In this document: one piece after another, positions 12,955 through 50,006 of the stretch
Position numbering within the stretch: the first letter of the stretch is position 1
Layout of the letters: every line of letters starts with the position of its first letter
Assembly (NCBI GenBank): GCA_964447005.1
Contig: CAYUQP010000015.1
Location: forward strand, 22,484 to 86,483
Direction of reading: 5' to 3'
Source: an uncultured Bacteroidales bacterium
GTDB lineage: Bacteria; Bacteroidota; Bacteroidia; Bacteroidales; JAGOPY01
DNA: 64,000 nt
Program-made: the position numbers and the translations under genes
Notes under the pieces: generated by a model
The model's input: the letters and a program-made list of their open reading frames with translations, nothing else
What the model was told of the DNA's origin: nothing
Databases searched by the model: none

Positions 12955-12981
12955 TTGCAAATCAGATAACATCAATCAGCT

Positions 12982-24439: not shown

Positions 24440-27400
24440 ATGGATTCACAAGCTTTTGACGCGGTAATATTCGACCTCGACGGGGTGATCACCAAAACGG
24501 CGCTGGTGCACAGCGCTGCCTGGAAAAAGATGTTCGATGCCTATCTCCGGGAACGGGAATCGAAATACGGTGAACCCTTCAGGGAATTCACACAAAAAGA
24601 CGACTACCTGCCGTATGTGGATGGTAAACCCCGCTACAAAGGGGTTGAATCGTTCCTCGCCTCGCGTGGCATCAGCATTCCTTACGGCGATCCCTCGGAT
24701 GATCCGTCAGTGGAAACCATCTGCGGCATCGGGAACCGGAAAAACATCGCTTTCAATGAGGCGCTCCGGTCGGATGGCGTGGAGACTTATGAATCCACCG
24801 TTGAGCTGATCCGCCGGCTCAAAGAGGAAGGCATCCGGGTCGGGGTGGCCTCCTCGAGTAAAAACTGCAGGCAGGTGCTCGAAACAGCCGGGCTGCTCGA
24901 TTGGTTCGAAACCCGCGTCGACGGCGAGGTCAGCGCCGAACTGGGGCTGAAAGGAAAGCCCGAACCGGATATTTTCACAGTGGCTGCCGATAACCTGGGC
25001 GTCAGCTACGACAGGGCCGTGGTGGTGGAAGATGCCGTATCAGGCGTGCAGGCAGGCAAAAAAGGAAATTTCGGACTGGTCCTGGGCATAGCAAGGGAAG
25101 AAAATGAACAGGAACTTTATGCCAATGGAGCCGATATCGTTGTAAAAGACATCGGTGAAATAGGCTTTGATGGAATACTGAACTGGTTTAAACAAGGCAT
25201 CTTCCTGGATAACTGGTCGATAAAATACCATGACTATGTCGCTGAAAAGGAAAAAACCCGGGAAGCCTTGCTGACCGTGGGCAACGGCTTCTTCGGAACC
25301 CGCGGCGCCATGCCGGAAGCCGAGCCGGGAAAATTCAACTATCCGGCAACCTACATGGCTGGCGTTTATAACCGCCTGGTCTCAAAAGTCGGCGACCGGG
25401 ATATTGAAAACGAGGATTTTGTCAACGTGGTTAACTGGGTTCCGGTCACATTTAAAATCAATGACGAAGACTGGTTCGATATCAATAAGACCCACATCCT
25501 TGAGGTAAAAAGGGTGCTGACATTCAACAACGGGTTGCTGGTGCGCAGGCTCGTGGTCAGGGACGGACATGGCAGGGAAACACTGATCGTGACCCGCCGG
25601 ATTGCCAGTATGGAGAACCCCAATATGGCTGCCCAGGAATACGCCATCACCCCCTTGAATTATACTGCCAGGATCACCGTGCGCTCCGGTCTTTACGGGG
25701 ACCATATCAACGCCGGGGTCGACCGCTACAGCCAGCTCAACCAGAAGCACATCGAACCGATTTTGCTCGGCTCCGAGGAAAACCACCAGTATATCGTGGT
25801 GAAAACCACAAGGTCGAACACGGTCGTAGCGGTTACGGCCAGGGTTAAAGTCTTCGAGGACGGGGACAGGATTTATGTCCATTTCAGCAAGAACCATTCG
25901 GCCGGAAGATCCAGGATTGAATTTTCGAAAAACGTGGAGCAGGGAATGGAACTGAAGGTACAGAAGATTGTATCGCTGTATCATAACCTGGGCAGGAAAG
26001 AAGAGGATCCCCTTGAAAAGGCACTGGATATCTGTAAGAAGTATAAGACCTTCGACGAGGTCCTTGAAAAATCGTCGCGCAAATGGGAAGAGATCTGGGA
26101 CCGCATCGATATACGGCTGGTGGGAGACCGCCTGGCACAAAAGCTGCTCAGGATGCACCTTTACCACACGCTGGTCACCACCTCGCCTCATAATACCGGC
26201 ATCGACGCAGGCATTCCCGCACGGGGGCTTCACGGTGAAGCCTACAGGGGACATATCTTCTGGGATGAACTGTTCATCCTTCCGGTCTACAATATGCACT
26301 TCAGGGAAATAGCCCGGTCGGTCCTGCTTTACCGTTACAGGAGACTGGACGAAGCACGCAAATACGCCGCCGAATACGGATACCAGGGCGCGATGTTTCC
26401 CTGGCAAAGCGGCAGCAACGGCCGGGAAGAGACCCAGGTGATCCATCTCAACCCGCTGTCAGGCGAATGGGGCCCCGATCACAGTTCCCTGCAGCGGCAT
26501 GTCTCGCTGGCCATTGCTTATAACGTCTGGCAGTACTTTCATTTTACGGGGGATATGAAATTCATGGAAGATTACGGTGGAGAGCTCTTATTTGAGATCT
26601 GCCGTTTCTGGGCGAGCAAAAGTAAACTCAACAGGGCCACCGGAAGATATGAGATCATCAAGGTGATGGGACCGGATGAATTTCATGAAAAATACAAGGA
26701 CACCGAAGAAGGCGGGCTGAAAGACAATGCCTACACCAACATCATGGTGGCCTGGATGTTCAGCAAGGCTAACCAGTTACTCGAAAAGATGGAGCCTGGG
26801 AAAAAAGCAGTGCTGTGCGATAAGCTCAGGCTCACCGGCGGCGAGACCGAGCGCTGGAATGATATCGCCTCGCGGCTGAACCTGGTGATCTCTCCCGAAG
26901 GGATCATCGCACAATATGACGGGTATTTCGATCTGCATGAACTTGATTTTGAATACTACCGTGCCAGATATGGCAATATTTACCGGATGGACCGACTGCT
27001 GAAAGCGGAAGGCAAAACACCCGATGAATATAAAGTGGCAAAACAGGCCGATACGCTGATGTCCTTCTATAACCTGAGCAAGGAAGAGGTCGATGGGATC
27101 CTGGGCCGCATGGATTACCACCTGCCGGAGGATTACCTGATGCGGAACCTGCAGTATTACCTGGCCAGGACCTCCCATGGCTCCACGCTGAGCCGCGTTG
27201 TCCATTCACAGCTCGCAAACCTCACCGGTGACCACCGGCTGAGCTGGGAGCTATACCTGGACGCCCTGACCAGCGATTACGCAGATATCCAGGGAGGTAC
27301 TACCGCCGAAGGCATTCACGCCGGCGTCATGGCCGGAACGGTCTGGGTGGCCCTGGCTTCCTTCGCAGGACTGAACCTCCACGGCGATTATCCCCGCTTC

Positions 27401-27595
27401 GATCCCAACCTGCCCGTGCACTGGCGCAGGATCAGCTTCTCCTTCACCTTCAGGGAGGATGATTACGAATGCGAAGTGACCCCCTGCTGTGTCCGCCTCC
27501 GTATCGACCGCGCAACAGCCGGCACGGCAAAAATCGGGATCAGGAACAAAGAATTTGAAATAATAACGGGTGAATGGGTGGAATTCGAAATCTAG
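24440..27595 (+). CDS. Fusion of a beta-phosphoglucomutase-family HAD domain and a GH65 disaccharide phosphorylase
   Basis: HAD motifs FDLDGVIT, GKPEPD, VEDAVSG; GH65 motifs GNGFFGTRG, RGLHGEAYRGHIFWDE, GPDEFHE, KQAD, HGSTLS. Confidence 0.92.
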   Translation: MDSQAFDAVIFDLDGVITKTALVHSAAWKKMFDAYLRERESKYGEPFREFTQKDDYLPYVDGKPRYKGVESFLASRGISIPYGDPSDDPSVETICGIGNRKNIAFNEALRSDGVETYESTVELIRRLKEEGIRVGVASSSKNCRQVLETAGLLDWFETRVDGEVSAELGLKGKPEPDIFTVAADNLGVSYDRAVVVEDAVSGVQAGKKGNFGLVLGIAREENEQELYANGADIVVKDIGEIGFDGILNWFKQGIFLDNWSIKYHDYVAEKEKTREALLTVGNGFFGTRGAMPEAEPGKFNYPATYMAGVYNRLVSKVGDRDIENEDFVNVVNWVPVTFKINDEDWFDINKTHILEVKRVLTFNNGLLVRRLVVRDGHGRETLIVTRRIASMENPNMAAQEYAITPLNYTARITVRSGLYGDHINAGVDRYSQLNQKHIEPILLGSEENHQYIVVKTTRSNTVVAVTARVKVFEDGDRIYVHFSKNHSAGRSRIEFSKNVEQGMELKVQKIVSLYHNLGRKEEDPLEKALDICKKYKTFDEVLEKSSRKWEEIWDRIDIRLVGDRLAQKLLRMHLYHTLVTTSPHNTGIDAGIPARGLHGEAYRGHIFWDELFILPVYNMHFREIARSVLLYRYRRLDEARKYAAEYGYQGAMFPWQSGSNGREETQVIHLNPLSGEWGPDHSSLQRHVSLAIAYNVWQYFHFTGDMKFMEDYGGELLFEICRFWASKSKLNRATGRYEIIKVMGPDEFHEKYKDTEEGGLKDNAYTNIMVAWMFSKANQLLEKMEPGKKAVLCDKLRLTGGETERWNDIASRLNLVISPEGIIAQYDGYFDLHELDFEYYRARYGNIYRMDRLLKAEGKTPDEYKVAKQADTLMSFYNLSKEEVDGILGRMDYHLPEDYLMRNLQYYLARTSHGSTLSRVVHSQLANLTGDHRLSWELYLDALTSDYADIQGGTTAEGIHAGVMAGTVWVALASFAGLNLHGDYPRFDPNLPVHWRRISFSFTFREDDYECEVTPCCVRLRIDRATAGTAKIGIRNKEFEIITGEWVEFEI

Positions 27596-28335: not shown

Positions 28336-30000
28336 TTGTATTCCTTTTCAAAAAAAGAGCGATGGGCACTTGCCGGTCTCACAGTGCTGCTGCTTCCAGC
28401 GTTGCTGGTCAACCTGGGAATGGTGCCGCTTTACGTGGAGGAACCCCGGCGCGCAACCGTCGCGCTGGAAATGATGCTCCGGGGTAACTGGCTCGTTCCG
28501 ACAATAAACGGTGAATTCTACTACCTCAAACCCCCGCTGTTCAACTGGATCCTGGCGGGGATCTATTATTTCGCAGGAGGGCCGACCGAACTCCTTACCC
28601 GCATTCCGACCGTAGTATCGCTCCTGTTGCTTGGCCTGGTCATTTTCTGGTCAGGAAAAAAATACGTCAGTGCTGATTTTGGCGCCCTTTCGGCATTATT
28701 GTTTGTTACGGCGGCGGGAAACCTTTATTTCAACGCGCTGCTGGCGGAGATCGACATTTTTTACAGCCTGGTCACCTACAGCGGAATGATCCTGCTTTTT
28801 TATTTCCACCAGAAGAAGAGCTACCTGTTGCTCTTCCTGTCGGTATATTTCCTCGGCGCCATCGGGATCCTGACCAAAGGGCTCCCCAGCCTTGTATTCA
28901 CGGGATGGTCTCTGCTCGTATTCTTCCTGGTGAATAAAGATTTCAGAAAGCTGTTCACCTGGCAGCACCTGGCCGGTATCCTCATTTTTCTGGTGCTGAC
29001 CTTTGGATATTTTATCGTATACAGCCGGCATGGCGACGCCGTGAAGTACCTGATGAACCTGTCCGTCGAATCAGGGAAAAGACTGTCAGGGGATACTTTC
29101 CTGGATTACATCGGGCATTTGCTGCTCTATCCGCTGGATACCCTGATGAACCTGCTTCCCGCTTCACTGCTGCTGATCTTTGCCGCCAGGCGGTCATTCC
29201 TGAAAGATGTCCGGTCAAATACTTTTATGCGGTTTGCCCTGCTGATGCTCCTCGCGCATTTTCCCGTTTACTGGTTCCCGCCCGGCGGCCGGCAGCGCTA
29301 TATCATCATGCTCTACCCTTTCATGGTCCAGTTGTTCGTTTATTTTTACCTTATTTATTTTTATAAAGAGAAAGAAAGGTTCCGGCTATTTTCGGTACTT
29401 ATTCTCGTAGCAACCGGCCTGGGCGCTATCGGGAGCCTGGTACCGTTGCTGGTCGGGAGCATGCAAACCGTCCCCTTGCTGATCCCGGTTTGCCTGGTTT
29501 CCTTCGTGTTGATGGCCGCCCTGTTTTTCCTCCAGCTTAAAAACCCTTCATGGTCGGTCATCAATCTCCTGGCTGCTGTGATCCTTCTCAGGATCTTCTT
29601 CGGCATGACGGTGCTCCCGGTACGCGCTACCGAAGGCGTCGCACCGGCCAACAAACTGGCCGCCGCGGAGATCATCAAAACAGCCGGGAAAAGGGATGTT
29701 TGCATCCTGGACCCTACCTACCTGCCCATGCAGACCATCTTTTATTATGAAAAGGAAAAGCTTGAAATCCTGCCCCGCTGCAACACAATGCAACCAGGAA
29801 AGGTTCTTATTACGGAGAAGTTTATTCTTGCTGAATATCACTTCCGAAAAGAAACCAGTGAAATGATGATCAACCCGGTAAAGCCTGTCTCAGACCGTCT
29901 CAGCCGCGAAGACCAACGCATCATCCCCGGCAGGGATTATGAGATAATCAGTGAATTAACGCTGCAAAAAAGAAACTATCTGCTGATAACTCTAAACTAA
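28336..30000 (+). CDS. ArnT/PMT-like (GT-C) membrane glycosyltransferase
   Basis: EEPRRA, YYLKPPLFNW, LTKGLP motifs; many hydrophobic helices; TTG start. Confidence 0.85.
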   Translation: MYSFSKKERWALAGLTVLLLPALLVNLGMVPLYVEEPRRATVALEMMLRGNWLVPTINGEFYYLKPPLFNWILAGIYYFAGGPTELLTRIPTVVSLLLLGLVIFWSGKKYVSADFGALSALLFVTAAGNLYFNALLAEIDIFYSLVTYSGMILLFYFHQKKSYLLLFLSVYFLGAIGILTKGLPSLVFTGWSLLVFFLVNKDFRKLFTWQHLAGILIFLVLTFGYFIVYSRHGDAVKYLMNLSVESGKRLSGDTFLDYIGHLLLYPLDTLMNLLPASLLLIFAARRSFLKDVRSNTFMRFALLMLLAHFPVYWFPPGGRQRYIIMLYPFMVQLFVYFYLIYFYKEKERFRLFSVLILVATGLGAIGSLVPLLVGSMQTVPLLIPVCLVSFVLMAALFFLQLKNPSWSVINLLAAVILLRIFFGMTVLPVRATEGVAPANKLAAAEIIKTAGKRDVCILDPTYLPMQTIFYYEKEKLEILPRCNTMQPGKVLITEKFILAEYHFRKETSEMMINPVKPVSDRLSREDQRIIPGRDYEIISELTLQKRNYLLITLN

Positions 30001-31981: not shown

Positions 31982-32677
31982 ATGGCTAAAACCTTCAGAC
32001 AATACGACTGCAACCAGTGCAAAAAGCGGATCGAGATGTTCAGGGTGCTTCGCGAGGAGGATTTGAGTCTCCTTGAAGAAAAACGATACGAGGTTTTGTA
32101 TCACACCGGGGAGACTATCTTCAAGCAGGGGACCTCATTCACACATACGATCTGTATCCTTGAAGGTCTGGTTAAAGTATACCTGGAGTCGGAAAACCGG
32201 AAAAGATTCATTCTTTCCCTGATCGGTCCGGGAGAAATGATCGGGAGCCCCGGAATGTTTACGGATGATAAGCATCATTTTTCCGTGGTGGCAGTAGAAG
32301 ACACGCTGGCGTGTTATGTTGAAAGGCAGGTGATCGAAGAGATCATCCGAACCAACAACCTGTTTGCCATCGAAATGCTTAAAAGGTCTAATATAAGGGA
32401 TATCAACCACTTCAGAAAATTCACAAGCTTAACCCAAAAGCAGGTACCTGGCCGTGTTGCTGAAGTAATATTATACCTTTATAAATCAGTATACAAAACA
32501 AACCCCTTCATACTTTCCATTACCCGGCAGGATATGGCTGACATGGCCTCAGTGACTAAAGAAGGGACCATCCGGGTGTTGAAAGACTTTAAAGACGCAG
32601 GTCTCATTTCACTGAACGGCAATGAGATGAAAATCCTTAATGAAAAAGCGCTCTTGAGTATCTCCGAGGTCGGATGA
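31982..32677 (+). CDS. Crp/Fnr-family transcriptional regulator
   Basis: cNMP-binding-like domain, C-terminal HTH (ITRQDMADMASVTKEGTIRVLKDF), N-terminal CxxC. Confidence 0.92.
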   Translation: MAKTFRQYDCNQCKKRIEMFRVLREEDLSLLEEKRYEVLYHTGETIFKQGTSFTHTICILEGLVKVYLESENRKRFILSLIGPGEMIGSPGMFTDDKHHFSVVAVEDTLACYVERQVIEEIIRTNNLFAIEMLKRSNIRDINHFRKFTSLTQKQVPGRVAEVILYLYKSVYKTNPFILSITRQDMADMASVTKEGTIRVLKDFKDAGLISLNGNEMKILNEKALLSISEVG

Positions 32678-32807
32678 GATGCGACTGAATGAAATTTATA
32701 CTCATTCTAAATAAAAATTCAACTTTCAGATCCATCTTTTTTCTTATCTTTATCATATTGTCTTTCTGACATTTGTAGATTTGTAAATAGGACTTCTTGA
32801 TTTTATA

Positions 32808-32821
32808 TTGATTTTTATCAA
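32808..32821. promoter_or_regulatory. Perfect FNR-type box TTGAT-TTTT-ATCAA
   Basis: Exact match to TTGAT-N4-ATCAA between the regulator and the first cytochrome gene. Confidence 0.75.
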
Positions 32822-32940
32822 TATTTCTATGGTTCTTATGCAAATAATTATAACATAAATATCACCACCATTTTAAACATGACGATTAATGAATGTGAGT
32901 AATATTGCTTCGTGAATTCAAAACTTAAACAACGCGCTAT

Positions 32941-33957
32941 ATGAAAAAAATGAACTTTTTAACAATGATCTTATCAGTGGCAGTAGTTGTGTCACTGATT
33001 GTAGTTACCGCCTGCACTAAAGAAGGCCCGCAAGGCCCTCCGGGTGAAGACGGTATGGACGGCAACGCGACCTGCGGGGCCTGCCATGACAACACTGAAA
33101 CGATCGAAATTATTTCTGCCCAGTGGGGAAATTCCATCCATGCAATCGGCGGACATAATTTTGAAAACAGGACCACCTGCGCCCCCTGCCACACCAGCCA
33201 GGGATTCAAGGAAGTAGTCAATACGGATACTACAGCGACTATGGCAGCCGTCCAGAATCCGGCAAACATCAACTGCTACACCTGCCACAAGATTCACGAC
33301 ACTTACGCGAAAGCTGATTTTGAACTGAGGAAAACCACTCCTCACACTTTCTGGCTGACAAAGGAAACTGTGGACCTGGGCGCTGCAAACCTCTGTCTTG
33401 CATGTCATCAGCCCAGAACTTCCTATGTTATACCGGACGTCAATAATCCGGGAGGCATGTACAATGTTACCAACTCCCGTTTTGGTCCGCATCATGGCTC
33501 ACAGGGCTCCACGCTTACCGGAACGGCATTTTACCTTGTGGGAGGCGGATATTCCAACAGTTCACACGTTAACATTACCGATGCCTGTGTTACCTGTCAT
33601 ATGGCTGACCCTATCGGATATACAGCCGGGGGACATTCATTCAGTATGTACGATGCAGCTGAAGGCGAATACAATGTAGCAGGTTGTGCTCCATGCCATA
33701 CCGCAGATGAAGCTATTCAGCTGATCGAAGAACTGCATCCTGAAATCGAAGCTTTACTTACCGAGCTTCAAACTCTGTTAGAGGCTGCCGGAATTTACAA
33801 CCCTGTCAACGGACTGGCGAAAACCGGTGAGTATACCAACAAAGTTGCCGGCGCTTACTGGAACTATATCAGCATTGAGGAAGACAGGAGCCTTGGCGTT
33901 CATAACCCGAAATTTGTGAAAAGATTACTTGAGCAATCAATCGCTTCAATACAATAA
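32941..33957 (+). CDS. Hexaheme c-type cytochrome lipoprotein
   Basis: Lipobox VTAC; six CxxCH motifs (CGACH, CAPCH, CYTCH, CLACH, CVTCH, CAPCH); GPHH motif; helical C-terminus EDRSLGVHNP. Confidence 0.92.
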   Translation: MKKMNFLTMILSVAVVVSLIVVTACTKEGPQGPPGEDGMDGNATCGACHDNTETIEIISAQWGNSIHAIGGHNFENRTTCAPCHTSQGFKEVVNTDTTATMAAVQNPANINCYTCHKIHDTYAKADFELRKTTPHTFWLTKETVDLGAANLCLACHQPRTSYVIPDVNNPGGMYNVTNSRFGPHHGSQGSTLTGTAFYLVGGGYSNSSHVNITDACVTCHMADPIGYTAGGHSFSMYDAAEGEYNVAGCAPCHTADEAIQLIEELHPEIEALLTELQTLLEAAGIYNPVNGLAKTGEYTNKVAGAYWNYISIEEDRSLGVHNPKFVKRLLEQSIASIQ

Positions 33958-33980
33958 ACATTTAACGACATTTTAAAAAT

Positions 33981-34006
33981 AGGCTTCGTAACTGAAGCCT
34001 TTTTTT
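33981..34006 (+). terminator. Rho-independent terminator after the hexaheme gene
   Basis: AGGCTTC-gtaact-GAAGCCT followed by a T-run. Confidence 0.75.
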
Positions 34007-34007
34007 A

Positions 34008-34015
34008 TAATTTTG
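34008..34015 (+). promoter_or_regulatory. -7 promoter element (TAATTTTG) directly after the terminator
   Basis: Exact consensus match 14 nt before the ATG at 34030. Confidence 0.55.
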
Positions 34016-34029
34016 AAAAAACAAAGCCT

Positions 34030-34401
34030 ATGAAAAAGATCATACTATTAATTATCACGATGTTAAGCATCATGACCTGGCAATCCTGCCAATATGAATG
34101 GATTGACCCAATCGACACGGTTATCCCGGATGTTGTCAGTTTTGCCGGTGATATTCAGCCTATCTTCGACAGGAGTTGCAATAGCACCGGTTGCCATGCA
34201 ACCGGAGGCGTCGCTCCCGACCTGAGCCCCGCCAACGCCTATAATGATCTGATTGCCAAAAACCAGATCAACCTTGCCAATCCTGCCGGCAGCATACTCT
34301 ACACCAAATGTGCCACCGGCGGATCAATGGCTAAATTCACAAAACCAGGCGATGCCGATCTCATCCTGAAATGGATCGAACAGGGCGCTTTGAATAATTA
34401 A
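34030..34401 (+). CDS. Small monoheme cytochrome c-like lipoprotein with atypical CX4CH motif
   Basis: Lipobox WQSC; IQPIF...CNSTGCH; distal GSM; ILKWIEQGA end. Confidence 0.75.
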   Translation: MKKIILLIITMLSIMTWQSCQYEWIDPIDTVIPDVVSFAGDIQPIFDRSCNSTGCHATGGVAPDLSPANAYNDLIAKNQINLANPAGSILYTKCATGGSMAKFTKPGDADLILKWIEQGALNN

Positions 34402-34432
34402 CGGGATTTATAACGATAAAATCATTACCAGT

Positions 34433-35347
34433 ATGAAAAATATGATCATTATAGTCCTGGCTTTATTTATCAGCGCTTCCTTAAACGCACAGGACACGGA
34501 ATCAACAAAAAAAGTGAACAAGAACAAAACCCTCCTCGGGTACTTCATGGTCAACGACAGCAAACCGATGCTCACGTATGAAAGCGGGATGATCATCGAT
34601 AACCAGACCAGCTATATCCCAACAGCCAAAACCCTGGAATTCGTTATCCAGCACCGCTTTGGCAGCATGGAGAACGGGCTGTCGGATTTTTTCGGGATCT
34701 ATGGAACCGCCAACACCCGCCTTGCGTTGAATTATAGTGTTATGGACTGGCTGCAGGTCGGATTCGGAACCACTAAAAATTACAAACTCCAGGATTTCAG
34801 CCTGAAGGCCAACCTTCTGAAACAGAGCAGGGACAATAAATCGCCGGTGGATGTCACTTATTATGGAAATTTCTCCATCGACGCCCGCGACGAAACCTAT
34901 TTCGGTGAAGATTACAAATTCGGCAACCGCGTCGCTTACTTCAATGAACTGATGGTCTCCAGGAAATTCTGCGACTACTTCATCATGTCGGTCGGCGGCA
35001 GCTTTACCCACTTCAACCAGGTCGATTCTTTAATGGAACATGATAAGATCGCCCTGCATTTCGTAGGCCGGGTCAAATTCACCCAGCAGTCGTCGCTCAT
35101 CATCAATTGCGATGTGCCCTTGAAAATCGACGGGATCAAGGAATGGGGCGAATTCACAAATCCTCCGAAATATAATTTTGGATTTGGTTATGAAGTCGTT
35201 ACAGCAACCCACGTGTTCCAGATCTTCGCCGGTTCGGCAACGTACCTTGTACCTCAGTACAATGTTATGCTGAACCAGGATGATTTCTTTAAAAATATCG
35301 ATAACGTGTTCATCGGATTCAACATTTCCAGGGTCTGGAATTTCTGA
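34433..35347 (+). CDS. Outer-membrane beta-barrel protein (DUF5777-like)
   Basis: Signal peptide, FVIQHRFG and THVFQI motifs, amphipathic strands, C-terminal FNISRVWNF. Confidence 0.75.
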   Translation: MKNMIIIVLALFISASLNAQDTESTKKVNKNKTLLGYFMVNDSKPMLTYESGMIIDNQTSYIPTAKTLEFVIQHRFGSMENGLSDFFGIYGTANTRLALNYSVMDWLQVGFGTTKNYKLQDFSLKANLLKQSRDNKSPVDVTYYGNFSIDARDETYFGEDYKFGNRVAYFNELMVSRKFCDYFIMSVGGSFTHFNQVDSLMEHDKIALHFVGRVKFTQQSSLIINCDVPLKIDGIKEWGEFTNPPKYNFGFGYEVVTATHVFQIFAGSATYLVPQYNVMLNQDDFFKNIDNVFIGFNISRVWNF

Positions 35348-35386
35348 TGATATTATTCATTACCAAAATGATATGGCATTAATTTA

Positions 35387-35484
35387 ACCACAAAGGCGCA
35401 CTAAAGTTTGCACAAAGTCACACAAAGTTTGTGAATTGTATGTCTTTGTGCGCCTTTGTGACTTCCTTTGTGCGCCTTTGTGGT
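35387..35484. repeat. Palindromic element with 15-bp perfect terminal inverted repeat and CACAAAG/CTTTGTG inner repeats
   Basis: accacaaaggcgcac (35387-35401) pairs with gtgcgcctttgtggt (35470-35484). Confidence 0.85.
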
Positions 35485-35552
35485 GATCTTAAGCAAACAA
35501 AATGTTTTTCAACCAGCTAAATAAATGCTAACCTGACTATTCAATCTTAAAG

Positions 35553-36512
35553 ATGTTAAAGAACAGCATATTTATCCTATTGTTTATTTTAGCCTTCCTG
35601 CTGCCTTTGATCGGTCAGGAAGAATCCGAAATAGCCCCCATCACTTACGAAAAGAACCATGAATGCCTGAAATGCCACGGGCAAAAATATTTTTCCTACT
35701 TCAACGAATATGTCGGCAGGGATGTTAAAGAAAGAATGAATCCCATGTATATTATGGATTCGGCAACTTTCTACATGTCAAACCACCGCACCTTTATGTG
35801 CACGGATTGCCATTCCTATGAATATGGAACGAGCTTTCCCCATCCGAACCAGCTCCGTTTTGAACCCAGTTTCTCCTGTATGGATTGCCATGAAGGCAAT
35901 GACGAGTATGCCGAATTCCAGTTTGAAAAGATCAACGAGGAATTCCTTGCCAGCGTGCACTCGGAAAAGCACAGCGATGAATTCACCTGCTGGATGTGCC
36001 ATAATCCCCACACCTACCATATTACGGCACGGACCAGTGAAAACCTGCTGGAAACAATTCAGTACGATAACGAAATTTGCCTGAGCTGCCATAGCGACCA
36101 GTCAAAAATGGGCCTGCTCTCAGACAGGCACATTTATGATATGCTCAATCAACATGAATGGCTGCCCAACCAGAAACTGCATTTCAACAAAGTCAGGTGT
36201 ATAGAGTGTCACGCGCGTATCAGTGACACGTTAATGGTAGCACATAATATTCAGCCCAAAGAGCAGGCCGTAAAGCTTTGCGTGGAATGTCATTCCCAGA
36301 ACTCTATCCTGATGGCCTCCCTGTTCAAGCATATTAAGCAGGAAACCCAGGAAAAACAGGGCTTCCTCAACGCGGCCATCCTTAGCCAGGGTTACGTGAT
36401 CGGCGCCAACCGGAACACCTACCTGAACATCGGCAGCCTGGTGATCTTCGGCCTGGTAATACTCGGCATAGCAACTCACGCAATTCTCAGATACATCTAC
36501 CCAAAAAATTAA
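35553..36512 (+). CDS. Heptaheme c-type cytochrome with signal peptide and C-terminal His-containing TM helix (CbcL c-domain-like)
   Basis: Seven CxxCH motifs (CLKCH, CTDCH, CMDCH, CWMCH, CLSCH, CIECH, CVECH); TM helix LVIFGLVILGIATHAILRY. Confidence 0.9.
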   Translation: MLKNSIFILLFILAFLLPLIGQEESEIAPITYEKNHECLKCHGQKYFSYFNEYVGRDVKERMNPMYIMDSATFYMSNHRTFMCTDCHSYEYGTSFPHPNQLRFEPSFSCMDCHEGNDEYAEFQFEKINEEFLASVHSEKHSDEFTCWMCHNPHTYHITARTSENLLETIQYDNEICLSCHSDQSKMGLLSDRHIYDMLNQHEWLPNQKLHFNKVRCIECHARISDTLMVAHNIQPKEQAVKLCVECHSQNSILMASLFKHIKQETQEKQGFLNAAILSQGYVIGANRNTYLNIGSLVIFGLVILGIATHAILRYIYPKN

Positions 36513-36516
36513 CACT

Positions 36517-37137
36517 ATGTCATCCGTTTATTTATATCCTGTCTGGGTTCGATTATGGCACCTCATCAATGCCATCCTGTTCCTTATTTTAATCATAACC
36601 GGCCTCAGCCTTCAATATTCAAGCAAAGAATACACGCTTCTACGTTTCGACCTGGCGGTAACACTCCATAATATCTCCGGTATCCTGCTCACAATTAATT
36701 ATCTTGTGATCTTTTTCGGTAACCTCTTTACAAAAAATGGTTTTTACTACCGGATGAGAAGGCGCTGGCTTATGAAAGAAATTCCATTACAGACACGATA
36801 CTACCTGTTCGGGATCTTCCGTGGCGAAAAAGCCCCATTCCCCATTAACAGCCGGCGCAAGTTCAACCCGCTGCAGAAAATTGCGTATTTCTCGGTCCTT
36901 TATTTCCTGATGCCGTTGATATTCATCACCGGATGGGCCCTCATTTTCCCTAACGTGCTCTTCGTGGATAAGATCTTCGGTACCAGCAGCCTGCATTTCA
37001 CCGACCTGGTACATATCATCGTTGGTTTTATACTTTCCCTCTTCATGTTCGTGCATATTTACCTATGCACCATCGGCAAGCCCCCGGGCTCGCATTTTAA
37101 AGCAATGTTAAGCGGTTGGCATCATTCAGACCATTAA
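36517..37137 (+). CDS. Di-heme cytochrome b (HydC/FdnI/PhsC-like)
   Basis: Four TM helices; VRLWH, TLHNISG, KFNPLQK, LVH...FVHIYL. Confidence 0.9.
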   Translation: MSSVYLYPVWVRLWHLINAILFLILIITGLSLQYSSKEYTLLRFDLAVTLHNISGILLTINYLVIFFGNLFTKNGFYYRMRRRWLMKEIPLQTRYYLFGIFRGEKAPFPINSRRKFNPLQKIAYFSVLYFLMPLIFITGWALIFPNVLFVDKIFGTSSLHFTDLVHIIVGFILSLFMFVHIYLCTIGKPPGSHFKAMLSGWHHSDH

Positions 37138-37141
37138 AGCC

Positions 37142-38656
37142 ATGAAACTCAAAAATCTTAAACTGCCGGCATCATTTTACAACTGGACATCCATCATTGG
37201 TGCCACCATTGCCCTGATCAGCCTGTTCATGATCGTGTTCCTCTTCGTGATCACATCGATCTTCAACCAGGGCGGGTCTTATATCGGCATTGTCATTTAT
37301 ATCGCGCTTCCTGCCCTGCTGGTCATCGGGCTCATCCTGATCCCCATCGGGATGATCATCAAATACAGGAAGAATAAAAAAGAAGTGAAAAAAGACCTGA
37401 GATGGCCGGCTTTTGATTTTAATGAGCCCAGGCAACGCAATGCATTCATGATCTTTGCAGTGGGATCCACCATTTTTCTGCTTCTTTCAGCGATTGGCAG
37501 TTATGAGGCGTTTCACTATACCGAATCGGTGGAATTCTGCGGCACCCTATGCCATGAAGTGATGAAACCTGAATACGTGGCCTACCAGAATTCACCCCAC
37601 GCACGGGTGGCCTGCGTGGAATGCCATGTCGGTGAAGGAGCGGACTGGTATGTGCGGTCAAAATTGTCGGGCCTTTACCAGGTGTATTCCGTCACATTCA
37701 ACCTGTATTCAAGGCCCATCGAGGTTCCCATCCGAAACCTGCGCCCCGCCATGGAAACCTGTGAAGAATGCCACTGGCCGGAGAAATTCTATGCCCGCCA
37801 GCTCAGGATCGAACGGCATTATCTTTCAAACAGCGAAAATACCGAGTGGGACATTCACCTGCAGATGAAGACCGGGCCCAGCCTCAGCGCTCTCGGTCTG
37901 CAGGAAGGCATCCACTGGCACATCAACCCCGATATTAAAGTGGAATATGTAGCTACGACCCATGATCGCGAGACCATTCCCTGGATACGCTACACGAACC
38001 TGAAAACCGGCGAGGTCCATGAATACATGGACACTTCCAACCCGATGGAACCAGGCCAGATGGATACGCTGGAGATCAGGCGGATGGACTGCATGGACTG
38101 CCATAACCGTCCGTCGCACAATTACCAGACCCCGATCTTTGCCATTAACAGCGCGATTACGGCGGGTCAGATCCCGAAAGAGCTGCCCGATATCAAATAC
38201 CAGGCGATGCAGGTCATGAACGGCGATTATTCAACGGAAGATTCGGCCATGATGGCTATCGAACAAGGTATCAATGAATACTATTCAATGGCTTACGAAG
38301 AATTGTACCAGGCAAAACCAGAACTGATAAAGCAGGCCATTGCAGGGATCCAGGACGCTTTTAAGAAAAATATCTTCCCCGAGATGAGGGTGAAATGGAG
38401 TGCTTACCCGAATCATATCGGGCACCTTGAATTCAATGGCTGCTTCCGCTGCCACAATAACAACCATGTGTCGGACGACGGCAGGGTGATCTCCATGGAT
38501 TGCAACCTATGCCATTCCATCGTTGCACAGGGAACGCCCGGCAATATGCAGGTCATCCAGGGCCTTGACGAATCGCTCGAGTTCTTCCATGTGGACGATC
38601 CCGACGGGAACTGGAAAGATGCGCTTTGCTCCGATTGCCACCGCGATTTATATTAA
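37142..38656 (+). CDS. ImcH-like NapC/NirT-family heptaheme inner-membrane cytochrome
   Basis: Three N-terminal TM helices; seven heme motifs (CGTLCH, CVECH, CEECH, CMDCH, CFRCH, CNLCH, CSDCH); 504 aa. Confidence 0.85.
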   Translation: MKLKNLKLPASFYNWTSIIGATIALISLFMIVFLFVITSIFNQGGSYIGIVIYIALPALLVIGLILIPIGMIIKYRKNKKEVKKDLRWPAFDFNEPRQRNAFMIFAVGSTIFLLLSAIGSYEAFHYTESVEFCGTLCHEVMKPEYVAYQNSPHARVACVECHVGEGADWYVRSKLSGLYQVYSVTFNLYSRPIEVPIRNLRPAMETCEECHWPEKFYARQLRIERHYLSNSENTEWDIHLQMKTGPSLSALGLQEGIHWHINPDIKVEYVATTHDRETIPWIRYTNLKTGEVHEYMDTSNPMEPGQMDTLEIRRMDCMDCHNRPSHNYQTPIFAINSAITAGQIPKELPDIKYQAMQVMNGDYSTEDSAMMAIEQGINEYYSMAYEELYQAKPELIKQAIAGIQDAFKKNIFPEMRVKWSAYPNHIGHLEFNGCFRCHNNNHVSDDGRVISMDCNLCHSIVAQGTPGNMQVIQGLDESLEFFHVDDPDGNWKDALCSDCHRDLY

Positions 38657-38743: not shown

Positions 38744-39415
38744 ATGAAAAAAATCATTCTCTTATCGTTATTCATCATTCCTCTGTTTGTCCTTTCCCAG
38801 GAAAAAAACACCAAGATCGGTGAAACCACTGTCCGGCGAGTCAGTGTTGGCGCTGAGATCTACCAGGATTTCTGGATGAACTGGCCCAAAGGGATGAATG
38901 TCCGTGCCATCAACCAGGGCGCCGGAGGATTTGTCATGTATAATATCCCCCTGGGAGAAAGCCCGCTCAGCTTTTCGATCGGCGCCGGGCTGGGTTTTCA
39001 TAACCTGTTCAGCAACACGGTGATCGACAATATTCATGCCGATACCATTAGCTTCACGCCAATACCCGACTCGATCAGTTATAAGAAAAGCAAGCTGGGC
39101 CTTTCCTATCTCGACTTCCCGATTGAGCTGAGGCTTGTCACAAAAGATAAACTAAGGTTTTCCGTAGGTGTAAAACTCGGCTACAACCTGGATGCCAAAA
39201 CCAAGTATAAAGGCAATGACCTGGACGGAAACCTGAGCACGGTGAAATACAGGAAAGTGGAACATATTGACAAATTACGGTTCGGGCCGACCATCCGGTT
39301 TGGTTATGACTGGTTCCAGATCATGGGGTATTTTTCGGTGACCCAGGTGTTTGAAAAAGGACTTGGCCCGGAAGTTTACCCGATTTCAGTCGGGTTCACC
39401 TTCATGCCATTCTGA
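38744..39415 (+). CDS. Outer-membrane beta-barrel (PorT/porin-family-like)
   Basis: Signal peptide, YLDFPIELR motif, C-terminal Phe; own promoter TATCTTTG at 38706-38713. Confidence 0.75.
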   Translation: MKKIILLSLFIIPLFVLSQEKNTKIGETTVRRVSVGAEIYQDFWMNWPKGMNVRAINQGAGGFVMYNIPLGESPLSFSIGAGLGFHNLFSNTVIDNIHADTISFTPIPDSISYKKSKLGLSYLDFPIELRLVTKDKLRFSVGVKLGYNLDAKTKYKGNDLDGNLSTVKYRKVEHIDKLRFGPTIRFGYDWFQIMGYFSVTQVFEKGLGPEVYPISVGFTFMPF

Positions 39416-40084: not shown

Positions 40085-41572
40085 TTATAGTTCTTTCCGC
40101 AACCTTGCAACAGGGATATTTAGCTGTTCGCGGTATTTGGCCACGGTGCGGCGGGCAATGTTGTATCCTTTGTCTTTCAGGATTTCGGTGAGCTGCTCGT
40201 CGGTAAGCGGTTTGCCCTTGTCTTCAGCGTTGATGAAATCTGAAAGTATTTTTTTGATCTCACGGGTGGAGACCTCTTCGCCGGAGTCTTTCTGCATCGA
40301 TTCGGAGAAGAAGGTTTTCAGCAAAAAGGTCCCGAAAGGCGTCTGGACGTACTTGCTGTTGGCCACGCGGGAAATGGTGGAAATATCCAGGTTCACTTTC
40401 TCCGCTATATCTTTGAGGATCATCGGCTTGAGCGTAGTTTCATCGCCGGTCCGGAAGTACTCATCCTGGTAATCCATGATGGCCCGCATGGTGACATACA
40501 GCGTATTCTGCCGCTGTTTGATGGCGTCGATGAACCATTTGGCCGAGTCGATCTTCTGCTTGACGAACATCATCGCCTCTTTTCCTTTGCTGTGCTTATT
40601 TTCCGAATACAGCTCCATCATATCCAGGTAAGTCCTGTTGATGCGCAGCTCGGGAGCGTTTCGGGAGTTCAGCGTGAGTTCCAGCTCGCCGTCGATGTTT
40701 CTGACCGAAAAATCAGGGATAACGTAATTGTTGATCCGTGTGGTTTCGCTGACCGAATCGCCGGGTTTGGGGTTCAGCTTGAGGATCTCCTGGACGGCGC
40801 TTTTGAGGTCTTCTTCTGACAACCTGGATTTCTTTAGTATTTTATCGTAATGTTTCCGGGTGAATTCATCGAAATTTCGTTCCAGAATCAACTCGGCATT
40901 TTCGACGTCCCGTGTGCGGTCATCCTGTCGTCGTAACTGGATCAGGAGGCATTCCTGGAGGTTTCGGGCCCCGATGCCCGGAGGGTCGAGCTCCTGGACG
41001 ACCTTCAGCACTTCCAGGATCTCTTCCTTTGTCGTCTCGAGCCCTTGTGAGAAAGCCAGGTCGTCGGTCATGGCGCTGATGTCACGCTGCAAATATCCCG
41101 CATCATCAAGGTTGCCGATGATCGTCAGCCCGATCTGGTATTGCTTCTCGGTAAGTTCCCTCAGGCCGAGTTGCGCGATGAGGAATTCCTGGAAGCTGGT
41201 TCCGGCAGCATAAGGCATATCGCGCTGCTCGTCGTCAGGCCCCTGGTTGTTGGCAGCCATCCTGTAGGCCGGGATATCGTCCTCATCGAGATAGTCGTTA
41301 AAATCAAACTCATCGTCCGGGCTTTTCTCTTTGAAGTCATCTGTTTCGCCGTCTTCATCAGCGCCCAGGGGCGAGTCGTCCATGTCCCCGAAATCATCTT
41401 CCTCCTGGTTATCTGCAGAGTCCTCGGGCATTTCAAGGGCGGGATTTTCCTCAATTTCCTGCTTGATCCTTTGTTCCAGCGCCATGGAAGGGATCTGCAG
41501 CAGCTTCATCAGCAGGATCTGCTGAGGGGAAAGCTTCTGTAACAACTTTTGCTGCAGGCGCTGGTTCAACAT
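40085..41572 (-). CDS. rpoN: RNA polymerase sigma-54 factor
   Basis: Q-rich region I, LKDIAE...STISRV HTH, RpoN box ARRTVAKYRE. Confidence 0.98.
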   Translation of the reverse strand: MLNQRLQQKLLQKLSPQQILLMKLLQIPSMALEQRIKQEIEENPALEMPEDSADNQEEDDFGDMDDSPLGADEDGETDDFKEKSPDDEFDFNDYLDEDDIPAYRMAANNQGPDDEQRDMPYAAGTSFQEFLIAQLGLRELTEKQYQIGLTIIGNLDDAGYLQRDISAMTDDLAFSQGLETTKEEILEVLKVVQELDPPGIGARNLQECLLIQLRRQDDRTRDVENAELILERNFDEFTRKHYDKILKKSRLSEEDLKSAVQEILKLNPKPGDSVSETTRINNYVIPDFSVRNIDGELELTLNSRNAPELRINRTYLDMMELYSENKHSKGKEAMMFVKQKIDSAKWFIDAIKQRQNTLYVTMRAIMDYQDEYFRTGDETTLKPMILKDIAEKVNLDISTISRVANSKYVQTPFGTFLLKTFFSESMQKDSGEEVSTREIKKILSDFINAEDKGKPLTDEQLTEILKDKGYNIARRTVAKYREQLNIPVARLRKEL

Positions 41573-41707
41573 AAGGGATGTATCTTTTTGTTGTTTTAAA
41601 GATACAAAAATATTAATTACCGCTTACATGGCTACATTGTTAAACTGTTAAATTGTTCTATTGCTCAATTGTTATTTTCTATCCAGTATCGTGATTTGGT
41701 TATCGGA

Positions 41708-41790
41708 TGGTCAGGTGGTCAGGTGGTCAGGTGGTCAGGTGGTCAGGTGGTCGGGTGGTCAGGTGGTCAAGTGGTCAGGTGGTCAGGTGG
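41708..41790. repeat. (TGGTCAGG)10 octamer tandem repeat
   Basis: Ten units, two with single substitutions, ending 5 nt before the IS left end. Confidence 0.95.
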
Positions 41791-41845
41791 ATAAATGTCT
41801 TGTCCTGAAATAGGTTTACAGGAAAAGTAAACTTAAAACAGGATT

Positions 41846-42223
41846 ATGAAAACAAAAACTTACCGTTTTCCGAACGAATTTAAATTAAAAGTTGTTCAGG
41901 AGTACCTAAGCACAAGTATGAGTCAGAAGGAACTCATGGAGAAGTATAAAATTCGCGGTCCTAACACAATTAAGTTATGGATGCGTAAATTTGATCTTCA
42001 GTTGCCCAGTCAGCAACAAATAGAATTACAGCGCATGATGTCAAAGGAAAAAGAAAAGACACCCTATGAGCGGGAACTGGAGGCAAAGGTCAAGCAGTTG
42101 GAGTACCAGTTGGAGGATGAGAAACTGCGTACCCTGGCCCTGAGCACGATGATAGACCTTGCCGAGAAGGAGTTCAAGATCCCGATCAGAAAAAAATCTG
42201 GGGCCAAACCGTCGAAGTCATAA
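41846..42223 (+). CDS. IS3 transposase OrfA (HTH)
   Basis: FKLKVVQEYL HTH, coiled coil, A7 slippery site at 42190-42196. Confidence 0.9.
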   Translation: MKTKTYRFPNEFKLKVVQEYLSTSMSQKELMEKYKIRGPNTIKLWMRKFDLQLPSQQQIELQRMMSKEKEKTPYERELEAKVKQLEYQLEDEKLRTLALSTMIDLAEKEFKIPIRKKSGAKPSKS

Positions 42224-42246
42224 AACACGATCATTCCCAACAAGGC

Positions 42247-43134
42247 ATGGAAAAATTGTGTCGATTGTTTGGCCACAGCAGGCAGGCCTATTATCAAAAC
42301 CGCAAGTACGATCACCAGCAGTCCCTTGATGAAGAGATCATCCTGGAGATGGTTCGCGATAAACGAAAGCTCATGAGCCGGATAGGGGCCCGAAAGCTCC
42401 TGGAGATGATCTTGCCCGGACTTCAGCAACAAGGAATGGACATCGGAAGGGATGCTTTCTTTGATCTGCTTCGCGACCAGGGATTGCTGATCCGCAAGAG
42501 AAAAAGGAAAGTGATCACCACCTATTCCCGGCATTGGTTGAAGAAGTACCCCAACCTGATCAAGGACCTTGTGATAGACCGGCCGAATCAGGTATGGGTA
42601 TCAGATATTACTTATATTGAGACGGACCAGGGATTTATGTATTTGTTTCTGATCACTGATGCGTATTCACGAAAGATCTTGGGCTACTATTTATCAGAGG
42701 ATCTCAAGACCACCGGTGCGATCAAGGCGCTGGAGATGGCTTTTGCAAACAGCCTTTATCCTCTGAATGGCCTCATTCATCACTCAGATCGGGGCATCCA
42801 GTATTGTTCCGGAGATTATGTAGCACTTCTTCAGCAGAATCATGTGCAGATTAGCATGACTGCCAAAGGCGATCCCCGGGAAAATGCAATTGCTGAACGA
42901 GTGAACGGCATCTTAAAAGATGAATGGATACATCATACCCATTATAAAACCAAGGCTGAAGCCAGGAAGCATCTGGATGCAATCATCCCCATCTATAATA
43001 ACATCCGGCCTCACGCAAGTTGTGACATGCTGACCCCTGAGAAATCATATTTGACTACAGGTGTTCTAAAAAAACGCTGGAAAACATATCCCAGAAAGAA
43101 ATCAACAATGCAATTGCAAGAAGCCGCATCGTAA
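42247..43134 (+). CDS. IS3 transposase OrfB (DDE integrase core), -1 frame relative to orfA
   Basis: WVSDITY, HHSDRGIQY, ENAIAERVNGILKDE; the -1 frame is open from the A7 site. Confidence 0.93.
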   Translation: MEKLCRLFGHSRQAYYQNRKYDHQQSLDEEIILEMVRDKRKLMSRIGARKLLEMILPGLQQQGMDIGRDAFFDLLRDQGLLIRKRKRKVITTYSRHWLKKYPNLIKDLVIDRPNQVWVSDITYIETDQGFMYLFLITDAYSRKILGYYLSEDLKTTGAIKALEMAFANSLYPLNGLIHHSDRGIQYCSGDYVALLQQNHVQISMTAKGDPRENAIAERVNGILKDEWIHHTHYKTKAEARKHLDAIIPIYNNIRPHASCDMLTPEKSYLTTGVLKKRWKTYPRKKSTMQLQEAAS

Positions 43135-43531
43135 TCTGCTGTTATACAATCCGGTATAACATGATTAACAAAATTGCGAGTTATGAACAAAGAAAAAAGA
43201 AGCAAAAAAGAAAAATTACATAAAACATCATGTAAATTTATCTCAGGATTAAATCAAAAAGTGTAAACATTTTTTAGGACGAGACAAAATATTCCAAAAA
43301 AATCGCGAAGCGACGACCGATAATAGCCCCGGACGCCAGTCCGGGGAAAAAAGAGCGCAACATCCGATGAAAGTGCCAGATGCACGAAACAAAAGAATCC
43401 TTAATTAACAATCAGCTAATTTCCTGAACCTGAGTCAGAAAATTATCAACACATCTTGCTTTTTGCCATTTATTATCGTATTTTCGTATTTTCCATTTCA
43501 TTTAACCTTCCAACCAAAACCAATTGATCCA

Positions 43532-43696
43532 ATGAAATGGTATAACCAAATACCGCATTTCCGTAGAGAGAGAGAGAGAGAGAGTTTAGATCATCTCGCT
43601 CCCCTCCTGAATAAAGACCCTCCTTTATTAAAATTCACATTATTCAAGCTTAATAATCAATTAATTAATCGAAATCCTTTAATCTATTCAATATGA
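43532..43696 (+). other. Putative 54-aa leader ORF containing (AG)10, with its stop overlapping the S8 start (ATGA)
   Basis: ATG at 43532; (AG)10 at 43565-43584 encodes RERERES; TGA at 43694-43696. Confidence 0.4.
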
Positions 43697-47832: not shown

Positions 47833-47892
47833 TATTAATCATTCGGCTGCTGCGGGCTGATTGCTCGCAGCAGCTTTACAAACTAGCAGTAA

Positions 47893-49815: not shown

Positions 49816-50006
49816 GTTGAGATAGGGATCTCATCTGATATTTCCTTTTCTCCCGCCAGGGAGAAAAGACAGAAGCAAGGGACTGACGTCTTGGGCTACT
49901 GTCTGTCGTCACTATGTGACTGAATGGAATTGAACACGTTGTGTCCCCTCACTTCATTGTTTGAGCGAAATGTTGGCTCTTGGCTCTTAGCTTTTGCTAT
50001 TAACAC

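Follow-up and report, generated by a model that had tools for sequence, protein, structure and literature searches.

A conserved multihaem cytochrome cluster with a small DUF5777 barrel in Bacteroidales, a candidate menaquinol-to-outer-membrane electron chain

The 64,000-nt stretch of metagenomic DNA from an uncultured Bacteroidales bacterium that we analysed (hereafter, the window) contains, at positions 31982-38656 of the + strand, a cluster of genes for cytochromes, an outer-membrane barrel and a regulator. An earlier note on this DNA had described seven co-oriented genes, and all seven open reading frames (ORFs) were found there on the + strand. The first, g1 (31982-32677), encodes a Crp/Fnr-family transcription regulator of 231 amino acids (cNMP_binding, 2.4e-19; HTH_Crp_2, 3.4e-14). 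It is followed by g2 (32941-33957), encoding a hexahaem c-type lipoprotein of 338 amino acids with the lipobox VTAC and six CXXCH motifs, by g3 (34030-34401), encoding a monohaem c-type lipoprotein of 123 amino acids with lipobox Cys20, and by g4 (34433-35347), encoding a DUF5777 outer-membrane beta-barrel of 304 amino acids (PF19089, 1.6e-64). The product of g5 (35553-36512) is a CbcA-like heptahaem cytochrome c of 319 amino acids with a signal peptide, seven CXXCH motifs and a C-terminal transmembrane (TM) helix. Starting 4 nt past the g5 stop, g6 (36517-37137) encodes a CbcB-like dihaem cytochrome b of 206 amino acids with four TM segments (Ni_hydr_CYTB, 7.4e-25), and after a further 4 nt g7 (37142-38656) encodes an ImcH-family inner-membrane heptahaem cytochrome of 504 amino acids with NapC/NirT similarity, three TM helices, one CX3CH and six CXXCH motifs. 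The count of 21 c-haem motifs given in the earlier note also holds, as 19 canonical CXXCH motifs plus one CX3CH and one CX4CH, which are atypical. With 19 CXXCH per ~1,900 amino acids in the cluster versus 0 per ~19,400 amino acids in the other window ORFs of at least 150 amino acids, the density of haem motifs is far beyond chance.

A scan of species-representative genomes with a barrel profile found a relative in at least 579 genomes, of which the best 80 loci were analysed here. Nearly all of these belong to Bacteroidales (Lentimicrobiaceae, Prolixibacteraceae and Marinilabiliaceae), and they include the cultured carriers Carboxylicivirga linearis, C. fragile, Tangfeifania diversioriginum and Sunxiuqinia elliptica. 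The core g1-g6 is syntenic in these best 80 of at least 579 genomes: in nearly all 80 loci, g2 and g5-g6 enclose g3-g4 on a single strand with short gaps, g3 is immediately 5' of the barrel gene in 71/77 species loci, and by strict criteria the g5-g6 pair is 3' of g4 in 54/70 loci. Gene g2 is within the cluster in 56/58 loci (42 upstream, 14 downstream), and a Crp/Fnr gene adjoins the cluster in 46/58 species loci, in either orientation. Between g4 and g5, 54/80 species have an additional gene for a monohaem cytochrome c of ~139 amino acids. An ImcH-like gene is present within 10 kb in 21/46 species loci, and around more distant homologs the core recurs with ImcH either missing or inverted; ImcH is not a constant member of the cluster. 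Clusters of Prolixibacteraceae and related lineages carry, beside the ImcH-like gene, an extra cytochrome of ~930 amino acids with 19 CXXCH motifs and a tetrahaem protein of ~163 amino acids, which brings the total to 41 haem motifs. The 19-haem versions are found at about 12.5-17.5 kb in each of the loci L040, L057, L058, L062, L071, L080, L087 and L088.

Comparison of g1 with NCBIfam gave weak matches to FnrL, Fnr and FixK, all below cutoff. Among 64 homologs, Cys10, Cys13 and Cys111 are at least 90% conserved, that is, three conserved cysteines versus the four-ligand [4Fe-4S] cluster of FNR; these conserved residues suggest that g1 may be an FNR-like redox sensor. About 120 nt 5' of g2 is an FNR-type box, TTGATTTTTATCAA (32808-32821, + strand), which matches TTGAT-N4-ATCAA perfectly; the window contains two perfect sites, one of them this one. 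The TTGA-N6-TCAA core was found within 260 nt 5' of g2 in 43/57 species loci. The cluster is probably oxygen-regulated and anaerobically induced through this putative box, since FNR-box control suggests induction under anoxia. Between g2 and g3, a terminator-like hairpin with an 8-bp stem, including four GC pairs, is followed by a T-run, TTTTTTATAA (33981-34000, + strand). By consensus match alone, it is a possible attenuator.

The genes g5 and g6 together encode what matches a split CbcA/CbcB-type complex by architecture, the two proteins being set beside their Geobacter counterparts by description and not by alignment. CbcA is a seven-haem periplasmic cytochrome whose single C-terminal TM helix provides a histidine ligand to b haem (Joshi et al.; ImcH preprint), and CbcB is a four-TM dihaem cytochrome b, usually annotated as 'thiosulfate reductase-like' (Joshi et al.). 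In g5, the TM helix at residues 293-311 carries His309, and the 74 g5 homologs share the seven haem motifs, seven further histidines and H309. In g6, the conserved histidines H15, H51, H166 and H180 are located in TM segments, and the best NCBIfam match is the cytochrome b subunit of thiosulfate reductase, PhsC (6.8e-51, below cutoff). The assignment of g5 and g6 to CbcL, which the earlier note had drawn on for comparison, is ruled out: they are two separate polypeptides with seven haems and a four-TM b subunit, as opposed to the fused, nine-haem, six-TM CbcL. Homologous cbcBA clusters have been reported in the Bacteroidetes Prolixibacter, Marinilabiliales and Labilibaculum (Joshi et al.). No BccR-type sigma-54-dependent regulator gene is adjacent to the present cluster. 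The gene rpoN (40085-41572, - strand), 1.4 kb 3' of the cluster, encodes the sigma-54 factor itself and no BccR; it is close to the cluster in closer relatives only, and its proximity is probably coincidental.

Hydropathy places the three TM segments of g7 at residues 23-41, 48-66 and 101-119. Its CX3CH motif is CGTLCH at 133-138 and its CXXCH motifs are at 158, 207, 317, 434, 454 and 496, all of them conserved in 28 Bacteroidales homologs. Profile matches were obtained with the NapC/NirT N-terminal domain (3.3e-8) and with NrfH (1.2e-12), the only solved relative of g7. ImcH homologs are 495-519 amino acids long, with three N-terminal TM motifs, a CX3CH next to the membrane domain and six CX2CH (PMC6295460). 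In ImcH of G. sulfurreducens, H137 is the proximal and Q179 the unusual distal ligand of haem 1, and E127, K173 and Y188 are conserved residues of the quinol site (ImcH preprint). The corresponding residues E128, H138, K174, Q180 and Y189 of g7 are found at a constant offset of +1, by position and not by alignment to GSU3259; the first four are at least 90% and Y189 at least 70% conserved among the 28 homologs. The earlier proposal of an ImcH-type heptahaem protein is thus borne out in length, number of TM helices, haem motifs and the E/K/Q/Y signature, and g7 fits the ImcH family by architecture and by signature residues at matching positions.

At the outer membrane, the cluster encodes a small haem lipoprotein and a small barrel. 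There is no CXXCH in g3, which has a single CX4CH motif, CNSTGCH; its 78 homologs have either CX4CH or CXXCH, depending on the species, and the lipobox Cys is invariant and followed by E/Q-Y-E/D. The protein is PSCyt1-like, with the pattern PIF..C(X2 or X4)CH..G..P.L. The barrel protein g4 has a signal peptide and ends in RVWNF, the terminal Phe being typical of outer-membrane barrels. An AlphaFold2 (AF2) model built on a 38-sequence alignment has 12 strands (predicted local distance difference test, pLDDT, 81.8), and its Foldseek neighbours are FapF, the COG4313 channel, NanC, Tsx and KdgM (12 strands) and OmpG (14). Invariant residues include E69, H74, R75, K125, R166, R177, H193, H203, D204, E254 and H260; strand periodicity gave an ambiguous result as to whether the invariant histidines face the lumen or the lipid. 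An exhaustive hidden Markov model (HMM) search identified 1,567 representative clusters of the DUF5777 barrel family, and a literature search found no paper mentioning DUF5777.

The earlier note had proposed a candidate complete trans-envelope conduit. What stands of this proposal is a coherent multihaem chain from quinol to the outer membrane, encoded by a unit that is conserved across many Bacteroidales; what does not stand is a barrel of the Mtr/Pcc type. MtrB has about 26 strands. An identity of g4 as an Mtr/Pcc-type porin is ruled out by the strand number and the fold neighbours of the predicted model, because 12 predicted strands are too few to sheath a multihaem cytochrome. With a barrel as small as modelled, known outer-membrane wiring would not apply.

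In five loci, we observed a second, paralogous DUF5777 barrel (27-32% identical) near the cluster (L008, 13262-16610; L019, 19339-20800; L025, 18354-19250; L027, 18416-20788; L044, 15835-17171). Haem lipoproteins resembling g3 adjoin or lie near these barrels in L008, L027 and L044 (hmmsearch, 5e-15, 1e-9 and 1e-23), with three g3-like repeats in L008. A YceI-family lipid-binding protein is encoded next to the paralogous barrel in L008, L019 and L027, in place of multihaem cytochromes, and in L008 and L027 YceI is followed by a protein of ~145 amino acids, with a Pfam match to tRNA_anti-like in L008. The paralogous barrel and its g3-like partners are a separate, uncharacterised outer-membrane haem module. 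Because g3-like lipoproteins also precede paralogous DUF5777 barrels, g3 and g4 form a recurrent two-gene unit and are a predicted functional pair. Gene fusion lends this pairing no support: among the 150 best family representatives, the three N-terminally extended barrels examined have neither a CXXCH nor a cytochrome domain, and a fourth, 615-amino acid protein is a tandem barrel.

The paralogous pairs beside YceI, which occur without multihaem cytochromes, also bear on a different reading, according to which the adjacency of the genes is partly coincidental. In that case g1-g6 and g7 would be independent, and g3 and g4 would serve a non-respiratory role in the envelope, such as lipid or quinone handling or lipoprotein display, and would merely be co-regulated. 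The absence or inversion of g7 in many loci is in keeping with it. By contrast, the placement of g3-g4 between g2 and g5-g6 on one strand in nearly all 80 loci, the retention of the covalent haem motif of g3 in both paralog lineages and the 4-nt spacing of g6 and g7 in the window argue against such a coincidence, which we judge quite improbable.

How electrons might pass a barrel of this size can be outlined only tentatively. Together, g3 and g4 could represent a new class of outer-membrane electron transfer, a split 'cytochrome-porin' without a wide sheath, which with the OcwA-like hexahaem protein g2 would constitute a phylum-specific route of extracellular electron transfer (EET) and the genetic basis of fermentative Fe/Mn reduction. 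We regard this proposal as possible though doubtful. The haem might sit at the opening or in the interior of a narrow barrel lined by invariant His, Glu and Arg; alternatively, a threaded lipoprotein tether or a lipid-soluble carrier might bridge the membrane, the last being hinted at because the paralogous pairs sit beside YceI.

The combination of a monohaem cytochrome and a barrel likewise recalls the fused cytochrome-porins of the Cyc2 type, and hence a chain that runs inward, in which a donor outside the cell or close to the outer membrane (Fe(II), reduced humics, a cathode or a partner cell) supplies electrons for the quinone pool or an oxidase, with g3 and g4 acting like a split Cyc2. 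Cyc2 is a fused monohaem cytochrome-porin with 16 strands that is used for Fe(II) oxidation, which the 12-strand barrel and the separate lipoprotein do not resemble. An inward chain would accord with the occurrence of CbcL/MtoC-type quinone-interacting cytochromes in both reducers and oxidisers (PMC6295460), and with the ~139-amino acid, class-I-type monohaem cytochrome c of 54/80 species, which resembles carriers that feed oxidases. Set against this, no ImcH homolog has been reported outside Fe(III) reducers (PMC6295460), the control by an FNR box suggests anoxic induction, and the carriers are mainly described as fermentative or facultative anaerobes. Overall, an inward direction appears unlikely.

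The hexahaem lipoprotein g2 is the candidate for the end point of the chain. Its mature N terminus, C-T-K-E-G-P, is invariant among homologs and is directly followed by five collagen-like GXY triplets (residues 26-40; window positions 33015-33059), the number of which differs among species, from roughly 3 to 10. This stretch might serve as a flexible tether or as a short stalk for trimerisation. The C-terminal part is a helical bundle like that of OcwA and NrfA, with a conserved haem core. A profile of 38 homologs searched against the PDB gave OcwA (6I5B) as the top match (4.4e-11, spanning residues 216-346), with NrfA ranking lower, and a Foldseek search with the AF2 model (pLDDT 84.9) returned OcwA first (7.9e-6; TM-score 0.51), the S-layer undecahaem cytochrome 6QVM second and NrfA entries next. 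The link to surface EET drawn in the earlier note gains from this result, as the solved proteins nearest to g2 are reductases that act in EET at the cell surface. Exactly six histidines outside CXXCH motifs are invariant (H67, H119, H184, H209, H232 and H321), and the g2 sequence contains no CXXCK motif. There is no obvious open-coordination catalytic haem in g2, because six extra invariant histidines are available for six haems and CXXCK is absent; the haems are probably all bis-His and non-catalytic.

The structural family of g2 leaves room for an alternative in which g2 faces the periplasm and reduces a soluble acceptor that enters through the 12-strand barrel, with g3 as an accessory donor at the channel mouth. 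Candidate acceptors would be nitrite, hydroxylamine, sulfur species, an Fe(III) chelate or a soluble quinone. OcwA, the cell-surface terminal reductase of Thermincola, slowly reduces nitrite and hydroxylamine, some g2 homologs are annotated in databases as nitrite reductase c552, and the fold neighbours of the barrel (Tsx, NanC, KdgM, COG4313 and OmpG) are small specific channels. The partial lipoprotein export signal described below and the best match of g6 to PhsC point in the same direction. The PhsC-like label is, however, a documented mis-annotation of CbcB homologs (Joshi et al.), and g2 itself lacks CXXCK and has its six extra invariant histidines. Scans of the cluster ORFs against Pfam and NCBIfam detected no molybdopterin, FeS or sirohaem catalytic subunit, and the 19-haem cytochrome of ~930 amino acids in other lineages is of a kind typical of long-range electron transfer. 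In addition, Labilibaculum (Bacteroidetes), which reportedly has cbcBA homologs, can reduce Fe(III) citrate, Fe(III) oxide and Mn(IV) oxide while fermenting glucose, whereas it does not reduce nitrate, nitrite or sulfate; the annotation 'NrfHA' in its genome is suspicious. We consider the reduction of a soluble periplasmic acceptor a serious but minority possibility.

We slightly favour the interpretation that the cluster encodes an electron chain, respiratory or assisting fermentation, that is induced under anoxia by an FNR-type switch, leads from menaquinol to the outer membrane and probably serves as an extracellular sink. According to this interpretation, g1 would turn on the operon through the FNR box 5' of g2, and menaquinol would be oxidised at the inner membrane through two entries, the split CbcA/CbcB-type g5/g6 and the ImcH-type g7. 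Electrons would then pass through the bis-His heptahaem domain of g5 and, in most other species, through a soluble monohaem cytochrome c of ~139 amino acids, a step missing in the present lineage. They would next reach the outer-membrane module, in which the monohaem lipoprotein g3 is paired with the 12-strand barrel g4, and would end at the OcwA-like, all-bis-His hexahaem protein g2 as terminal reductase on its flexible collagen-like tether. The acceptors would most likely be at or beyond the cell surface, such as Fe(III)/Mn(IV) minerals or chelates, humic quinones, electrodes or partner cells, and the purpose would most likely be the extracellular disposal of electrons during fermentation, for which the Fe and Mn reduction by Labilibaculum is a physiological precedent. 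We infer the direction of electron flow, the outward-facing lipoprotein, the crossing of the outer membrane and the identity of the acceptor.

Several observations weigh against an extracellular electron chain, whose weakest part is the outer membrane. The 12 predicted strands of g4 are like those of small solute or polypeptide channels and not of MtrB-type sheaths, and no ORF for a periplasmic MtrA/OmaB-like decahaem or octahaem cytochrome is present, g5 and g7, the multihaem proteins that are not lipoproteins, being membrane-anchored. The present lineage lacks the periplasmic monohaem cytochrome c that 54/80 species possess. Both g2 (C-T-K-E-G) and g3 (C-Q-Y-E-W) match the Bacteroidetes export signal C-X-K-(D/E)2 only in part, so that their surface exposure is putative. 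Furthermore, our literature searches found no expression, localisation or phenotype data on any carrier, and no description of Carboxylicivirga, Tangfeifania or Sunxiuqinia as metal reducers.

The inner-membrane half of the chain is not new, because ImcH, CbcL and cbcBA homologs have already been reported in Bacteroidetes, including a count of ImcH and CbcL homologs (Zhong and Shi). Together with the known fermentative Fe/Mn reduction by Labilibaculum, these reports make the earlier framing of an unexpected phylum an overstatement. The outer-membrane half, consisting of an OcwA-like hexahaem protein, a monohaem lipoprotein and a DUF5777 barrel, appears to be undescribed, and literature searches for an outer-membrane EET module in Bacteroidota found nothing equivalent. 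The 'giant PCC cluster' (porin-cytochrome complex; 61- and 20-haem proteins) of Lentimicrobium is apparently another locus.

Sediments, digesters and bioelectrochemical reactors all have Bacteroidales as dominant fermenters. Should these bacteria dump electrons on minerals, humics, electrodes or partner cells, fermentation balances, views of Fe/Mn cycling and the interpretation of 'electroactive' communities would change. The inner-membrane markers ImcH and cbcBA had already been spotted in the phylum and the outer-membrane route had not; the present cluster is a genetically testable candidate for it, which ranges from metagenome-assembled genomes (MAGs) of uncultured digester bacteria to cultured strains of Carboxylicivirga, Tangfeifania and Sunxiuqinia. 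The small barrel implies either a new outer-membrane electron crossing or a system that ends in the periplasm. Either outcome would sharpen genomic calls of 'EET potential', in which counting haems beside any barrel is common.

The surroundings of the cluster in the window are typical of Bacteroidota, with SusC/SusD genes and C-terminal domains of the type IX secretion system (T9SS). Downstream and co-oriented, g8 (38744-39415, + strand) encodes a small OMP_b-brl_2 outer-membrane protein of 223 amino acids (PF13568, 3.7e-12). It trails the cluster in closer relatives only and is absent from more distant species loci, and its membership in the system is doubtful. The GC content of the cluster is slightly lower than that of its surroundings (0.44-0.48 versus ~0.50), yet horizontal transfer was tentatively set aside, as housekeeping genes keep their places beside the locus in those closer relatives (barrel 58-75% identical) whose flanks were inspected. 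Within the window there are no genes for cytochrome c maturation or menaquinone; in 10-13 other species, the haem maturation genes ResB/CcsA are found beside the cluster.

Upstream of the cluster, a starch/maltodextrin utilisation locus (3225-27595) contains SusC/SusD genes (9943-14547), five GH13 amylases, a fused HAD-GH65 maltose phosphorylase-like protein (24440-27595) and T9SS-tailed amylase and CBM9 proteins. A hypA-like ORF (109-453, + strand) encodes 114 amino acids, beginning MHE and containing CxxC...CxxC, and is followed by an ORF of 742 amino acids (651-2879) with no Pfam match. Hydrogen and sugars had earlier been suggested as electron sources on the basis of hypA and the starch locus. 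This suggestion is not supported: hypA is solitary and 31 kb away, the Pfam scan of window ORFs revealed no structural gene for a hydrogenase, and adjacency to the starch locus was seen only in the closer relatives checked and not in distant loci. Between a PRK-family kinase and an MFS transporter, positions 28336-30000 (+ strand) encode a polytopic membrane protein of 554 amino acids with a TTG start and no Pfam match, which is not at the same position in the related MAGs L005-L007 (g7 86% identical).

A 98.6%-identical strain (L001), represented by a 108-kb JGI contig, lacks an 8.3-kb segment of low GC content (0.39-0.43) found at positions 41674-49994 of the window. Inside this strain-specific segment are orfA/orfB of an IS3-family transposase (41846-43134), an S8 subtilase of 1379 amino acids (43693-47832) and a PKD/T9SS-tailed protein (47893-49815). 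Just past the transposase, positions 43301-43346 (- strand) match the Rfam small RNA family Acido-Lenti-1 with 44.1 bits (gathering score 37). The aspS region beside the segment is only 91% identical to L001, versus 98.6-99.5% for the flanks, which suggests a recombination hotspot in this area.

Among known systems, CbcBA of Geobacter sulfurreducens (GSU0593-0594) is like g5/g6 in its seven-haem cytochrome with a histidine in a C-terminal TM helix and its four-TM dihaem cytochrome b. The gene order of g5-g6 is c then b, unlike that of CbcBA, and a Crp/Fnr regulator with an FNR box is found at g1-g7 in place of the sigma-54-dependent BccR at Geobacter cbcBA. Furthermore, g5-g6 are embedded with outer-membrane genes, whereas the Geobacter cbcBA operon is without such genes. 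ImcH (GSU3259; 507 amino acids) and g7 (504 amino acids) share three N-terminal TM helices and a CX3CH right after the third. In Bacteroidales, the ImcH-like gene accompanies the cluster only in some loci and is very abundant in its own right, databases holding more than 7,900 relatives, and ImcH genes have not been found next to mtrAB-type genes (PMC6295460).

The Mtr/Pcc conduits, exemplified by Shewanella MtrCAB and by Geobacter OmaB-OmbB-OmcB and ExtABCD, have in common with the present cluster a barrel gene with cytochrome genes on its flanks, including one for a multihaem lipoprotein, and genes for inner-membrane quinol oxidases that adjoin the barrel and cytochrome genes. Their porins are much larger than g4, a DUF5777 protein of 12 predicted strands that has no periplasmic cytochrome to thread it. 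In the Cyc2-type cytochrome-porins of Fe(II) oxidisers, one haem is coupled to one barrel, as proposed for g3-g4. Cyc2 is fused, whereas g3 and g4 are two polypeptides of which the cytochrome is a lipoprotein and the barrel is smaller, and the two systems are likened by architecture and not by sequence. Finally, g2 shares the NrfA-type helical bundle, in the region of the haem core, with OcwA of Thermincola potens (6I5B) and the undecahaem cytochrome of Carboxydothermus ferrireducens (6QVM), at ~20% identity and a TM-score of 0.51 to OcwA. It has six haems, compared with nine in OcwA and eleven in the undecahaem cytochrome, and probably no open-site haem, judging from the six extra invariant histidines, compared with two in OcwA. 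Both relatives are surface terminal reductases of Gram-positive metal reducers, whereas g2 is a lipoprotein of a Gram-negative bacterium with a collagen-like tether.

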